Position numbers and translations under genes: made by a program
Notes under the pieces: generated by a model
What the model was told of the DNA's origin: nothing
Seen by the model: the letters and a program-made list of their open reading frames with translations, nothing else
Databases searched by the model: none
Part shown: piece after piece, positions 59,401-63,660 of the stretch
How the letters are laid out: each line of letters begins with the position of its first letter
Numbering within the stretch: position 1 is the first letter of the stretch
Assembly (NCBI RefSeq): GCF_002854065.1
Contig: NZ_CP024147.1
Origin: Escherichia coli
Lineage (GTDB): Bacteria; Pseudomonadota; Gammaproteobacteria; Enterobacterales; Enterobacteriaceae
DNA: 64,000 nt
Strand: one strand, 5' to 3'

Positions 59401-59907
59401 TTATTCTCCTTTTGTTAAATCCAGAACATAAATATGCTCACCCTCTTCGATGCCTGAAAAATGAAAGCCAGTCCTGATAAGTAATTTTATTGAAGAGGTA
59501 TTCTCCGGATCCACACCGGCTTTGATGAGTGAAAAACCGTTCTCCTTTATCCAGCCGATGGTGGCGGTAATGGCTTCAAATGCATATCCCTGGCGAGCAT
59601 GAGCGGGGCTGATGGTATAACCGAGCCAAAATACATCGCATTGCTGACGTAAATAGATATCACCAATCAAAACCTGCGTCAGCTTGTTGACGATGGCCAA
59701 TTGAATTCCCTGAGTAAGCGTAAGAACGCCCAGCAATGCTGATTCATAGTCCTCTTTTGTTAGACCCTTAAACCCCTGATATTTCATCCACTCCGCATCA
59801 TTGCGATACACCATAAAACTATCGATTTCGTGTGGCTGAAATGGCCGAATAATGCACCCTGGCGAAATTATTTGCATAAGACTTCCTTTTAAATGATTCA
59901 TCTGCAC
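59401..59907 (-). CDS. GNAT-family N-acetyltransferase
   Basis: 168-aa ORF with GNAT-like core (QGYAFEAITATIGW). Confidence 0.6.
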   Translation of the reverse strand: MQMNHLKGSLMQIISPGCIIRPFQPHEIDSFMVYRNDAEWMKYQGFKGLTKEDYESALLGVLTLTQGIQLAIVNKLTQVLIGDIYLRQQCDVFWLGYTISPAHARQGYAFEAITATIGWIKENGFSLIKAGVDPENTSSIKLLIRTGFHFSGIEEGEHIYVLDLTKGE

Positions 59908-60021
59908 CAGTCTCTGCGACCAAAAGAGTTACCGCCTGATGCTATGCCCGACAGCCGCTCCCTGACTATGTCCGGTGCGTCGCCGCTTTCATACACAACA
60001 CGAAAACTGTCAGTTTAATGT

Positions 60022-60414
60022 TCAACCCTCATCGGCATAGAACACAAAAGCCAGCTTATTCCCGTCCGGATCGCGTACATAAGCACTATGGAATCCCTGT
60101 CCGTATTGCGGCCTGTGCCCCGGCGCACCTTCATCCGCGCCTCCCAGACTAAGGGCAAGCGCATGCAACTGCTGGATGTGTTCAAACGAGCGGGCGTTCA
60201 GCGCCACCATCGTGCCATTACCAGCCCCGGCGGGTTGCATGTCAAAGGGCCTGCCGACGCACAATCCGATGGTATGGTTATCGCTGAACGTCCCCCAGGA
60301 TGCGCCTTCTTCATTTCGGCCTGCCTTTGGATACCCAAGCAATTCCATCAACGGATCGTAGAATCGGATGGCTCGTGGCAGATCGTTAGTACCCAGCATC
60401 ACGTAAGAAAACAT
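60022..60414 (-). CDS. Glyoxalase/bleomycin-resistance/VOC-family protein
   Basis: 130-aa ORF; C-terminal ...HSAYVRDPDGNKLAFVFY typical of the VOC fold. Confidence 0.65.
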   Translation of the reverse strand: MFSYVMLGTNDLPRAIRFYDPLMELLGYPKAGRNEEGASWGTFSDNHTIGLCVGRPFDMQPAGAGNGTMVALNARSFEHIQQLHALALSLGGADEGAPGHRPQYGQGFHSAYVRDPDGNKLAFVFYADEG

Positions 60415-60423
60415 AAACCCTCC

Positions 60424-61695
60424 TTACTCACTTTTGTATTTTTGTTGCAGACAGCCTGCCGGTGATACTGACAGGCTCTGATGCTGCCCACGCAGTTTAA
60501 GCAGGCGGGCAACTGATATGATGACGGCTATACCGGCCAGCAGAGCCGCGCCGTGGAAAGCAATCCTGCCGCCGGCATGTAAGTAAACCCAGCGGGTTAT
60601 TTCAATGCTAAGGGCAATTATGCCAAGCGCCAGAATATTCAGCGTGGCAGAAACGGTGCCTTTTGGCAGGTTATGAGAAAAGAGCGTGAAGCGAAACAGC
60701 ACCGGATAGAGCAGTCCAATACCCAGGGCATAAAAGCTCGTTCCCAGTACTGACCATAGCCAGACGTGTGGCCATAGCAGATTGCCGACCAGCAAAGTCA
60801 GCAAGCCAGCAAGCTGTATCGGGACAGTCCCCCAGATAAAACGCGGTGAAGTCGGGTCTTTGATAAAATTCGCTACGATCGCACTGGCGATAATGATCCC
60901 ACTAAACACGGGCACCTGTGTCCAGGCATAGGTTCCGGGAGACATACCCCCGTGCTCAATCAGGATCACGGGTGAGAGCGCCACCCAGGTGATGATGGGC
61001 AGGTTGCCAAAAGCAACTGCCAGTGAGCCGGTCAGCACCACTGGATGGCGAAATGCCGCGATGAAATCTGACAGCACTTCACCCGGTTTGAATTCTCTTC
61101 CCTGAGATATAACTGTTTCCGGCATTTTGAGCAGTAGTAAAAACCATGCTACCAGACCAAACACACCGATGATGGCAAAGAGCAGTTTCCAGTGAATGAA
61201 CGCCATCAGCGCAGCGCCGGCCACAGGCCCGATAACTGGGGCGAGCAGAACAATAGAGGTCAGCGTAGCCATGATTCTGATGGAATCCATTTCACCAAAC
61301 GCCTCCTGAATTGAGACGTAACCAACGGTTGAGATAAAACAGATGCTGGTGCCCTGAATGAAGCGGGCGACGAAGTATTGTTCGATCGAGGTGACAAACA
61401 GCATGCTTAGACTGGCAAGGGCAAAGATCATTGCACCAGTGAGCAGGACAGGGCGGCGGCCAATCCGGTCGGAGAGTGGCCCCAGGAGCCACTGTAGCGC
61501 CAGTCCGCCTGCCATATACAAACTGACTGATGCTGGAGCCAGCGTCACATCCGCCTGTAGCTCATTTATAATGCTAATGACGCCCGGCTGAATAAGGTCC
61601 GTTGTCAGGTAGGCTGAAAAATCGTAGATGATCATCGCCAGTGGAAATAATAGAACGCCGCCATACCTGCTAAGGCGTCCCGAAAATGGCTTCAT
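60424..61695 (-). CDS. MFS transporter (drug-efflux-like, 12 TM)
   Basis: 423-aa hydrophobic ORF with MFS loop motif ([14 protein letters not shown]). Confidence 0.75.
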
Positions 61696-61733
61696 AAACG
61701 GGTTCTCCGTTTTTTATCATTGAATGGTTTTAA

Positions 61734-62309
61734 TCAACTCAGATCGTGCAGTTCTTTATCCATTGCAGGAGTCAGTCTGAGATCAAGAAATTCTACCTCC
61801 AACCCCTTGCGCTGAGGTGTACAACACATGATGCCCGTTTTTACAGGGCCCGTAGGGAAATGGCATAAGCGAAGTAATGGCCAGTGCTGTCCATCTGAGG
61901 AGTACTGCAGTCGTAACGCATCTTTTTTACGGGTCAGACGCAGCCAGAATTCCTTCGGATCCCCAGGAAAGAGTCCTGTAGCCCAGTCGGAATATCCCTG
62001 CGTGAGTACACTCCCGATTGCAGGTGTGCCATCGTTGAATTCGATGCCAGCTTTGAGCCAGTGCTGTTCGTCAGAGAGAATCATAATTCCGGCCTGGTCA
62101 TAGAGTGTGGTGAAGTTTGCGCGGATCCTGACCTGAAAAGTAAAATCACCTGTTACATCAGTAGCGTAGATGTGGCCGGTAAAACGCTCAAACCCGTACC
62201 AGGTACGGCACCAGAAATCAGTATGCTCATCTGTGATTACCGACAGGGCGTTATTTTCGTAGCACCATACGGCGGGCTCATTGATCCATTCAAACCTGCA
62301 ACTCATCAT
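61734..62309 (-). CDS. Hypothetical protein (possibly DUF1349/concanavalin-like fold)
   Basis: 191-aa ORF, Trp/aromatic-rich; family assignment from memory only. Confidence 0.4.
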   Translation of the reverse strand: MMSCRFEWINEPAVWCYENNALSVITDEHTDFWCRTWYGFERFTGHIYATDVTGDFTFQVRIRANFTTLYDQAGIMILSDEQHWLKAGIEFNDGTPAIGSVLTQGYSDWATGLFPGDPKEFWLRLTRKKDALRLQYSSDGQHWPLLRLCHFPTGPVKTGIMCCTPQRKGLEVEFLDLRLTPAMDKELHDLS

Positions 62310-62346
62310 TGTTCTCCTGTCATGCGGAACGCAGCATAACGATAGT

Positions 62347-63165
62347 TTAAAATGTCAGTTCCATTTCAAACTGGCATAACGGTTCAGCCTGATAACCCGC
62401 CGCAGTAAATAATGGTGCCAGCGTTTCTGGGATCGCGGCTGATGTACCTATGCCAGGCCATCTGGCATTGATTTTCTTAAGCATTGTTTTAGCCCGTCCC
62501 TGGTAACGATACGCCGGTTCCACAAACAAACAGCGGAGCTGAGGTTGTCCCATGAACTCGGCGACAGCACACCATGCATGTTCGTTATCCCTGAGGATGT
62601 CACAGGGAATAGACAAGAGCTGCAGGGGACTGGCCAGCCAGGGAAGATCATCATCTGGTGCAGACCAGACGGTACGCAGGAAGTCATCAACAGACTTGGA
62701 TTCCATAGCCCCTGAAGATATTTCCAGATGAGACTGTGGATCTCCCCGGTATTTGCACAGATGTCGGCGAACCTGAAAACCGAGCGCGTGATAGAGAGCG
62801 ATGGCCCGGGTATTTTCGCGCATCACTTCCAGCCTCACGCTGGAAAACTTTTTCTCTTTTAAGGAGGTAAACAGAGGAGTAAGCATCTGTTTTGCCAGTC
62901 CCTGGCTCCGGTACTCGGGTAACACACCAAATGCGGCCAGACGCGCTTTGTCCATTCTGCGGGTTACGATGGCTATTGCCGCCGGGTTATCATTGACCAG
63001 CCAGACAAACGAGTCTTCAAGACTGAGTCCTTCGGAAATGAAACGTAAGGCAAACATTTCCGGTGGCAACGCAAACGGTGTCATTGATTCATTAAAGCTG
63101 TCTGCAAGAATACGGCACAGCTCAGTAATGCTGCATTCAAGGGCTGATACCGGAATAACGTTCAT
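62347..63165 (-). CDS. GNAT-family N-acetyltransferase (tandem GNAT-like halves)
   Basis: 272-aa ORF; motifs RSQGLAKQML and RYQGRAKTML in two halves. Confidence 0.6.
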   Translation of the reverse strand: MNVIPVSALECSITELCRILADSFNESMTPFALPPEMFALRFISEGLSLEDSFVWLVNDNPAAIAIVTRRMDKARLAAFGVLPEYRSQGLAKQMLTPLFTSLKEKKFSSVRLEVMRENTRAIALYHALGFQVRRHLCKYRGDPQSHLEISSGAMESKSVDDFLRTVWSAPDDDLPWLASPLQLLSIPCDILRDNEHAWCAVAEFMGQPQLRCLFVEPAYRYQGRAKTMLKKINARWPGIGTSAAIPETLAPLFTAAGYQAEPLCQFEMELTF

Positions 63166-63225
63166 AGATAAAGCTCTCCATTGCGGTTACCGGGAGCTAC
63201 AGGGGAAAATATGCTCCCTGTTTTC

Positions 63226-63660
63226 TCAGACAGTGAAGCTGATTTCTACAGAGCGGGCACTGCGATCACCCTCACCATGGTAAACAGCTTCGATGTTGTT
63301 ACCGTCCGGATCCAGAACAAAAGCGGCATAGTATCCGGGATGATAGGTTCGTTCGGCAGGTGCGCCGTTATCACGTCCGCCATGATTTAGTGCTGCGTGG
63401 TAAAACGCGTTCACCGATTCACGGTCTGCGGCCTGAAAGGCCAGATGGTGCCGTCCTGTAGGCACTCCGCCAGACTCCGAACTTTTTACTGACGAAATGA
63501 CCAGTTCGTCAGCCCAGATATAATCGTCATCGGTAATAACCATGGGGATCTTAAGTTCCGCCAGAACAGCAGTGTAAAACGCTTTGCTTGCGGCAAAGTC
63601 GTTTACCACGAGCTGGATATGGTCGATAAGTCTGCCACGATGCAGCGTATAGTTATCCAT
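63226..63660 (-). CDS. Glyoxalase/VOC-family protein
   Basis: 144-aa ORF with ...YAAFVLDPDGNNIEAVY motif. Confidence 0.6.
   Translation of the reverse strand: MDNYTLHRGRLIDHIQLVVNDFAASKAFYTAVLAELKIPMVITDDDYIWADELVISSVKSSESGGVPTGRHHLAFQAADRESVNAFYHAALNHGGRDNGAPAERTYHPGYYAAFVLDPDGNNIEAVYHGEGDRSARSVEISFTV

Follow-up and report, generated by a model that had tools for sequence, protein, structure and literature searches.

A six-gene cluster around an MdtM-like pump on a leuX island of Escherichia coli, probably modular cargo with a VOC-pump-VOC core

Positions 59401–63660 of the Escherichia coli DNA analyzed here (contig NZ_CP024147.1; "the window" denotes the whole stretch of 64,000 nucleotides) are filled by six back-to-back open reading frames (ORFs), all on the minus strand, for an MFS pump, two VOC proteins, two GNAT proteins and a DUF1349 protein. 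The closest described relative of the pump is MdtM (YjiO), a DHA1 multidrug, bile-salt and Na+(K+):H+ antiporter, and the two share their charged residues. A small cytosolic protein paired with an exporter, as VOC1 and the pump are here, is found in the mitomycin self-resistance of Streptomyces lavendulae, where the protein Mrd has a VOC fold and no metal site. Together with its exporter Mct, Mrd raises mitomycin resistance 150-fold (bioRxiv 10.1101/2025.11.28.691146). GloA and FosA, which have the VOC fold in common with both window proteins (PF00903), are metalloenzymes. Two GNAT domains in one chain are known from Legionella VipF, a glucosamine N-acetyltransferase of C. acetobutylicum (PDB entry 5KF1), M. 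tuberculosis MshD, and Eis. The DUF1349 family includes ECA2234 of Pectobacterium (3MEP) and YJL217W/REE1 of yeast (3O12), neither of which provides a mechanism.

We read the cluster, with a probability of roughly 0.55, as modular cargo and not as one dedicated pathway; the element that carries it is an integrative island at leuX, acquired horizontally. In this reading, the pump and its two VOC neighbors would have long formed a unit for exporting a small molecule, and perhaps for modifying or binding it; GNAT2 with DUF1349, and GNAT1, would be independent additions. On the sequence comparisons presented below, the six genes comprise three evolutionary units: GNAT1, a VOC2...MFS-VOC1 core, and a facultative, separately inherited insert of GNAT2 and DUF1349 between VOC2 and the pump gene.

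A first-pass annotation, made from the sequence alone, had listed these genes as GNAT, VOC, MFS transporter, DUF1349-like, double-GNAT and second VOC. All of the family names match Pfam, and the ORF listing and RefSeq agree with the gene limits it gave, except that GNAT1 more likely starts at 59877 than at 59907. The chromosome of E. coli VTB96935v (NZ_CP178662.1) is a 100% match to the window, and its RefSeq annotation contains the same six genes. With their Pfam scores, the genes are:

59401–59877, minus strand: GNAT1, 158 amino acids; PF13302 at 64.9 bits (gathering score 25.4)
60022–60414, minus strand: VOC1, 130 amino acids; PF00903 at 27.9 bits (gathering score 20.6)
60424–61695, minus strand: MFS pump, 423 amino acids; PF07690 (MFS_1) at 108.1 bits (gathering score 33.4)
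61734–62309, minus strand: DUF1349 protein, 190–191 amino acids; PF07081 at 232.6 bits (gathering score 32.4)
62347–63165, minus strand: GNAT2, 272 amino acids; PF00583 at 61.1 bits
63226–63660, minus strand: VOC2, 144 amino acids; PF00903 at 48.7 bits (gathering score 20.6)

The five genes from VOC2 through VOC1 (the block) are rare in E. coli. Complete, and accompanied by a divergent DUF1062 gene just past the window end, they occur in 9 of 5,426 complete genomes, six of which have GNAT1 as in the window and three the arrangement of strain SE11, in which a sugar operon follows VOC1. The SE11-type arrangement is also found in the chromosome of Enterobacter sp. JUb54, where the block is 96–98% identical at the amino acid level. 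The K. pneumoniae chromosome keeps the same order, with VOC2 (72% amino acid identity), the pump (76%) and VOC1 (83%) followed by DUF1062 (69%), and shows no trace of GNAT2 and DUF1349 within VOC2-MFS-VOC1. This neighborhood is common to at least 20 of the 24 contigs read, the VOC1 cluster comprising 1,038 member sequences. As VOC2, the pump gene and VOC1 are thus linked in K. pneumoniae too, the enrichment of families in the window reflects inherited synteny and not chance.

Other subsets of the block are present elsewhere. K. quasipneumoniae carries GNAT2-DUF1349-MFS and neither VOC gene, and K. quasivariicola only VOC2-GNAT2, downstream of trpBA. DUF1349 stands alone between trpA and a sugar operon in Entomohabitans, and a K. 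oxytoca plasmid has VOC2 alone. In E. coli R2 and on a Salmonella IncFIB plasmid, VOC1 is joined to a 3' remnant of the pump gene beside DUF1062, and these arrangements are deletion derivatives. In all architectures containing both the pump gene and VOC1, the two are adjacent.

The unlike histories of the six genes, which lay outside the first-pass annotation, are also evident from their divergence. Compared with Enterobacter JUb54, synonymous divergence (dS) is 0.03–0.11 for VOC2, GNAT2, DUF1349 and the pump gene and 1.08 for VOC1; compared with K. quasipneumoniae, it is 0.14 for GNAT2, 0.33 for DUF1349 and 1.47 for the pump gene. Synonymous divergence is therefore strongly mosaic, which places recombination breakpoints between the genes. 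Homology to the SE11-type islands breaks off at approximately 60038, within the 3' end of VOC1. All genes are intact, with ratios of non-synonymous to synonymous divergence (dN/dS) of 0.05–0.48 that correspond to purifying selection, and they are therefore maintained.

A metagenome scaffold from Citrobacter (positions 5001–7606) carries VOC1 (89% amino acid identity), then a trpA fragment of 68 amino acids, then topAI-yjhQ-yjhP. Because of this fragment and the trpBA-linked versions in K. quasivariicola and Entomohabitans, the sequences suggest a common source for the block and the topAI operon, namely a hypervariable locus that follows trpA in related genera. K. quasipneumoniae has a second, partial copy of DUF1349 (81–83% amino acid identity, residues 51–155) approximately 6 kb upstream of its intact GNAT2-DUF1349-MFS genes, at positions 2343–2653 of that locus and beside a solute-binding-protein gene.

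The mosaic could also have arisen by accretion alone, an explanation that we consider rather unlikely. The six genes would then be functionally unrelated, brought together only because a hypervariable locus recombined again and again before an island took it up, and each would act alone or be silent. Other combinations of the genes downstream of trpA, or near DeoR and PfkB genes, in the Klebsiella complex and Entomohabitans are in line with such a process, and so are the mosaic divergence, the presence of DUF1349 without linkage in 28 species, and the pseudogenized relatives nearby (a VOC pseudogene, yjhZ remnants and the K. quasipneumoniae DUF1349 fragment). It does not readily account, however, for the order VOC2-MFS-VOC1, which is kept between the E. 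coli islands and K. pneumoniae despite protein identities of only 72–83%, or for the adjacency of the pump gene and VOC1 in all architectures that have both, with even the deletion derivatives retaining the 3' end of the pump gene on VOC1.

The pump, a DHA1-type member of the MFS (Pfam MFS_1 above its gathering score), is 59% identical to K-12 MdtM over 399 amino acids. MdtM is also its best NCBIfam model (equivalog NF011932), with 586 bits under a cut-off of 700; the K. pneumoniae counterpart reaches 593.5 bits on this model. Since the native mdtM is present at its usual locus (between yjiN and rpnD/yjiR) in the same genome, the window pump is an additional, island-borne paralogue. According to the residue roles described for MdtM (PMC4785361), D22, D30 and R108 (E26, D34 and R112 in MdfA) are conserved as D25, D33 and R111 of the window pump, together with the equivalents of MdtM Y26, Y57, C116, Y123, Q257, F261 and K342, and four substrate-contact positions are changed (A119S, I141T, I148L and F253Y). 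These residues are consistent with a working proton antiporter that has a somewhat altered substrate pocket. In addition to these changes, the sub-cut-off score, the status of a second copy and the VOC-flanked context set the pump apart from MdtM. In our reading it is an MdtM/MdfA-type DHA1 antiporter, intact and coupled to protons, that most likely exports a cationic or amphipathic small molecule.

The two VOC proteins are 26% identical, and the two GNAT proteins have in common approximately 54 amino acids of the acetyl-CoA-binding core and nothing more, so that both pairs are distinct paralogues, as had been claimed in the first-pass annotation. VOC2 has H14, H71/72 and E124 aligned to the ligands H5, H74 and E122 of E. 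coli GloA, the equivalent of E56 being ambiguous. With these three ligands (His/His/Glu) kept, VOC2 is probably a metalloenzyme that would act on a small molecule. Its dN/dS is 0.14–0.31, and its closest solved structure is the uncharacterized 4Z04 (E 8e-23). VOC1 retains none of the four GloA metal ligands (H5, E56, H74 and E122), the corresponding positions reading Y, G, T/M and A, and may more likely be a ligand binder or carry out other chemistry. It starts 9 bp downstream of the pump gene, its closest solved structure is 4QB5, also uncharacterized, and members of its family occur widely among Klebsiella, Citrobacter, Enterobacter and Salmonella, forming 2,212 clusters at E ≤ 1e-20.

Both VOC proteins differ from the described metalloenzymes also in overall similarity, with approximately 25% identity to GloA, and with FosA scores far below the cut-off: among the NCBIfam models, VOC2 scores at best 22.3 bits for FosA against a cut-off of 275, and VOC1 has no FosA or FosB match. 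VOC2 reaches 20.1 bits for Ble-like_N, below 24.5. The idea that VOC1 is a drug binder of the Mrd or Ble type was rejected after a search of its family profile against the PDB (E ≤ 1), in which no mitomycin- or bleomycin-binding protein was found, Mrd (1KLL) included; this was a sequence-profile search with no fold-level comparison, and it returned only uncharacterized VOC proteins, glyoxalase I and STM3117. Between Mrd-Mct and VOC1-pump there is no detectable sequence relationship, nor a producer context here, and the likeness would be one of mechanism only.

The five genes of the block are co-oriented, with gaps of 60, 37, 38 and 9 bp from VOC2 through VOC1. Every start is preceded by a Shine-Dalgarno sequence, and a scan for terminator-like sites on the minus strand found none in the gaps. 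Co-transcription from VOC2 through VOC1 fits with these short gaps, the Shine-Dalgarno sequences and the absence of terminator-like sites, and VOC2, GNAT2, DUF1349, the pump gene and VOC1 are probably transcribed together. The start of transcription would lie in the AT-rich stretch ahead of VOC2, which extends over 969 bp (39% GC) up to the divergent DUF1062 gene. A −35/−10 candidate at 63708–63680 matches the consensus and is a lead only, and an Rfam scan of the block and the 970 bp upstream (E ≤ 1) gave no riboswitch or leader. The upstream region contains one further feature, which the first-pass annotation had not included:

63840–63989, minus strand: candidate small ORF of 49 codons with an AGGAGG ribosome-binding site

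This ORF (MPLNKMKRHAILYTLSIPERKLRPLKWLALISSLLVILQLAIESLVISE) lies 179 bp upstream of VOC2, has the AGGAGG 5 nt ahead of its ATG, and encodes a product with a hydrophobic C-terminal half. It is kept at 80–96% amino acid identity in SE11, Enterobacter JUb54 and K. quasivariicola, each time upstream of VOC2, as well as on the K. oxytoca plasmid, and its dN/dS is 0.34–0.42, based on few substitutions. It is unannotated in the RefSeq record and has no Pfam or NCBIfam match. Judged by these features, the candidate could be the first cistron of the block or a small membrane protein.

Several points weigh against modular cargo built around an active pump-VOC unit. The scan for promoters and terminators gave counts no higher than in shuffled sequences, with 5 promoter-like sites where 6.5 are expected, and acquired DNA as AT-rich as the region upstream of VOC2 is often silenced. 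The closest solved structures are all uncharacterized structural-genomics entries, so that no substrate can be inferred from them. The VOC-MFS-VOC synteny could be explained by inheritance alone, without functional coupling. Finally, different species keep different subsets of the genes, and therefore no gene strictly needs the others.

The two halves of GNAT2 share 28% identity. Residues 31–135 are covered by Pfam GNAT models, and the CoA-binding motif R-x-x-G-x-A is present in both halves (RSQGLA and RYQGRA). In an AlphaFold (AF2) model based on 80 family members (pLDDT 93.9), the protein has two GNAT folds in one chain, and Foldseek aligned it over its full length with VipF, 5KF1 (the best match, TM-score 0.74), MAB_4324, MshD and Eis. 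The designation as a double-GNAT in the first-pass annotation was therefore apt, given the identity between the halves and the match of the model to solved tandem-GNAT proteins. The architecture is that of the described tandem GNATs (Foldseek probability 1.0, TM-scores 0.56–0.74), but identity to them is 8–16%, and GNAT2 is shorter than most of them at 272 amino acids and does not have a third domain, which Eis has.

Close relatives of GNAT2 are few (12 clusters at the 90% identity level, E ≤ 1e-10), and in a wider sense the family is large, with 295 representatives at E ≤ 1e-10. Five relatives at 35–41% identity have no VOC or DUF1349 neighbors and lie in unrelated contexts; one of them is beside an MFS homologue and one beside an EamA exporter, which are too few to conclude from.

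The DUF1349 protein matches 3MEP (E 4e-70) and 3O12 (E 1e-56) in the PDB, both uncharacterized, and its model superposes on these structures at a TM-score of 0.9. The next matches of the model are the C-terminal β-sandwich of GH43 β-xylosidases and L-type lectins, and as modeled the protein is a concanavalin-A-like, lectin-like β-sandwich. Full-text literature on DUF1349, DUF1062 and YJL217W/REE1 contained incidental mentions only and no function. Within 10 kb of 28 DUF1349 homologues from other species (<80% identity), not one of the other five genes is present, and the idea that DUF1349 is the key to the cluster was rejected on this lack of linkage.

No known resistance determinant was found in the cluster. 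The six proteins were compared with the NCBIfam antimicrobial resistance models, which include the FosA, AAC, Sat, ArsN, Cml/Flo, Tet and Qac families, and none reached a curated cut-off: scores were 19.6 bits for AAC(6') (cut-offs 140–270), 20–22 for ArsN (125–170) and approximately 100 for CmlA/FloR (450). This is the resistance-model search that the first-pass annotation had proposed. Homology to a housekeeping function, raised there as the contrary outcome, was not found either; the best scores were for RimJ with GNAT1 (24 bits, equivalog cut-off 190), from which we conclude that GNAT1 is not RimJ, and for RimI with GNAT2 (56.7 bits, cut-off 86.4). The same annotation had remarked that such sets often encode modification and efflux of antibiotics or toxic metabolites. 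The single antibiotic set that this implies is not borne out, with no resistance cut-off reached, three separate units, DUF1349 unlinked in 28 other species and GNAT1 belonging with topAI. A detoxification role is plausible but unproven, and the first interpretation was too unitary; its view that substrates cannot be named from the sequence stands.

By analogy with described systems, the block could nevertheless be a single dedicated cassette for resistance or immunity against one toxic natural product, which we consider quite unlikely. GNAT2 would acetylate an amine, VOC1 would sequester the compound and pass it on to the pump in the manner of Mrd and Mct, VOC2 would cleave or isomerize it, and export would be left to the pump. 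In support, the five genes share one orientation and are tightly spaced, intact and under purifying selection, VOC1 is devoid of metal ligands and follows the pump gene by 9 bp, Mrd and Mct provide a precedent for a binding protein with an exporter, and in Entomohabitans a GNAT2-like gene (38% amino acid identity) adjoins an MFS homologue (45%). Subsets of the genes, however, persist independently in K. pneumoniae, K. quasipneumoniae, K. quasivariicola, on plasmids and in E. coli R2, and neighboring genes differ at least ten-fold in divergence. The absence of any resistance model at cut-off, of an Mrd or bleomycin-binding match to the VOC1 profile, of VOC or DUF1349 genes beside the five distant GNAT2 relatives, and of a biosynthetic or regulator gene also argues against such a cassette. 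That the block, or its VOC-pump-VOC core, is an unrecognized mobile resistance cassette moving among Klebsiella, Enterobacter and E. coli on integrative islands is in our estimate very unlikely. Such a cassette could be directed at one particular natural product or drug, either cationic or containing an amino sugar, which would be met by acetylation, VOC binding or cleavage, and efflux assisted by a binding protein.

Less likely again is a physiological or metabolic role, in which the pump would, like MdtM, help to balance ions, pH or bile salts, and DUF1349 and a sugar-amine acetyltransferase would serve adjacent carbohydrate operons. K-12 MdtM carries the annotation of a bile-salt and Na+/K+:H+ antiporter, carbohydrate-binding β-sandwiches are similar in fold to DUF1349, the best TM-score of GNAT2 is with a glucosamine N-acetyltransferase, and the block abuts operons for a sugar phosphotransferase system, aldolase and kinase in SE11, Enterobacter JUb54, K. 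quasipneumoniae and Entomohabitans. Yet no sugar operon is adjacent in the window, sugar operons are common neighbors in any variable region, and the likeness to GH43 accessory domains and tandem GNATs is generic, at 8–17% identity.

In the modular reading, GNAT1 is the third unit and belongs to the topAI neighborhood. It is a RimJ/RimL-like GNAT, separated from VOC1 by 144 bp, with a GC content of 0.44 as compared to 0.52 for the block. The ATG at 59877 is the RefSeq start and has a better Shine-Dalgarno sequence than the upstream GTG at 59907, which is the less likely start. K-12 yjhZ belongs to the segment yjhP-yjhQ-topAI-yjhZ (KpLE2), where it precedes the topAI leader just as GNAT1 does here; its nucleotide identity to window positions 59438–59681 is 91%. 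Homology to K-12 ends at 59736, inside GNAT1, and also spans the Zn-ribbon gene (K-12 yjhY), yjhP and topAI. Whereas yjhZ has approximately 81 codons left in K-12 and in strain DA33135, the window gene is full length. Judging from this alignment, GNAT1 is the full-length form (158 amino acids) of the K-12 pseudogene yjhZ and a unit separate from the five-gene block. Matches to the query are present in approximately 1,770 of the 5,426 complete E. coli genomes, nearly all of them only over the topAI-proximal part that includes the 3' end of GNAT1; in DA33135, the one typical strain examined, GNAT1 is reduced to a remnant of 81 amino acids.

The eight-codon upstream ORF toiL (MLENVIIR) is located at 59174–59200 on the minus strand, 139 nt upstream of topAI (58804–59061); it is conserved exactly, and its distance to topAI is that of K-12. 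toiL senses ribosome-targeting antibiotics and controls topAI-yjhQP (eLife 2025, PMC12121999). A 68-amino-acid ORF at 59174–59380, the final eight codons of which are toiL, probably does not represent a gene. Between topAI, the toxin gene of which is intact, and yjhP (58554–58803), the yjhQ antitoxin gene is missing: homology to K-12 passes over it, and approximately 220 bp of unrelated sequence stand in its place. yjhQ is also flagged as frameshifted in SE11, DA33135 and A41, and strain R2 has a second methyltransferase gene instead of it; a complete TopAI toxin gene lacking the described antitoxin seems to be common. GNAT1 was considered as a stand-in antitoxin for the missing YjhQ and rejected, as it has no significant similarity to YjhQ; this role is further disfavored by the truncated pseudogene in K-12 and DA33135 and by the absence of GNAT1 beside topAI in Citrobacter.

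The island that contains the cluster has inserted at tRNA-Leu (leuX), where K-12 has KpLE2, and the cluster lies between the integrase and the fim genes. The island also carries CP4-type backbone genes (YfjJ, an AlpA-like helix-turn-helix protein, a YeeP-like GTPase and CbtA/CbeA), a type I restriction system, an AAA ATPase, an argonaute/PIWI protein with a PD-(D/E)XK nuclease, and a nuclease-helicase pair. A contribution of the six genes to anti-phage defense, as part of the repertoire of an island that bears type I restriction-modification, argonaute with nuclease, and the nuclease-helicase pair, is extremely improbable, for a PADLOC search at E ≤ 0.01 gave no family for any of the six proteins, and the same genes are found in ordinary chromosomal contexts in Klebsiella.

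The type I restriction-modification genes (hsdR, methyltransferase, S subunit, AAA ATPase and a hypothetical gene) are located at approximately 41,700–53,500 of the window, on the leuX island. At yjiA-yjiS, the 'immigration control' position in K-12 (NZ_CP178662.1, 3962926–3965466, outside the window), a penicillin G acylase gene replaces hsd/mcr/mrr. At 54334–57679, the minus strand of the window carries the argonaute/PIWI gene, which is followed by the PD-(D/E)XK nuclease gene, together with a VOC pseudogene and the Zn-ribbon gene. This segment is also present in Salmonella, with an argonaute 98.7% identical and the VOC gene intact. The pseudogene is a third VOC copy, a paralogue of the VOC1 type, which the first-pass annotation had not listed:

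56988–57380, minus strand: third VOC copy, pseudogene with an internal stop (RefSeq flag), 62% amino acid identity to VOC1

Its intact counterpart in Salmonella, between the Zn-ribbon gene and the argonaute gene, is 71% identical to VOC1.

On the other side of the block, the DUF1062 gene lies on the plus strand just past the window end (equivalent to window positions 64630–65238) and encodes an N-terminal CxxC...CxxC zinc ribbon. It accompanies the pump and VOC genes in all architectures seen except that of K. quasivariicola, namely in the E. coli islands, Enterobacter, K. pneumoniae, K. quasipneumoniae, the Salmonella plasmid and strain R2, in varying orientation. Searches of the PDB and NCBIfam returned nothing informative for it, a PADLOC match to DrmA (E 0.002, 13.7 bits) was dismissed as noise, and the protein could be a regulator.

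The six genes are all from well-known superfamilies, RefSeq already annotates them in generic terms, and no new type of system is indicated. Mildly new are the conserved VOC-pump-VOC arrangement, its mobilization into E. coli, and the recognition of K-12 yjhZ as a stump of GNAT1. The direct importance is small, in that the locus adds one more uncharacterized pump of the MdtM family, with GNAT and VOC neighbors, to the accessory genome of E. coli. At the same time, the VOC-pump-VOC arrangement, conserved in K. pneumoniae and mobilized into E. coli on leuX-type islands, is a defined and easily cloned test case for a possible help of small proteins with the VOC fold to the MFS exporters of enteric bacteria, and the locus offers a tractable context for DUF1349 and for a tandem-GNAT family. 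A drug phenotype, if one were found, would make the block relevant to resistance surveillance, as it already moves between genera.

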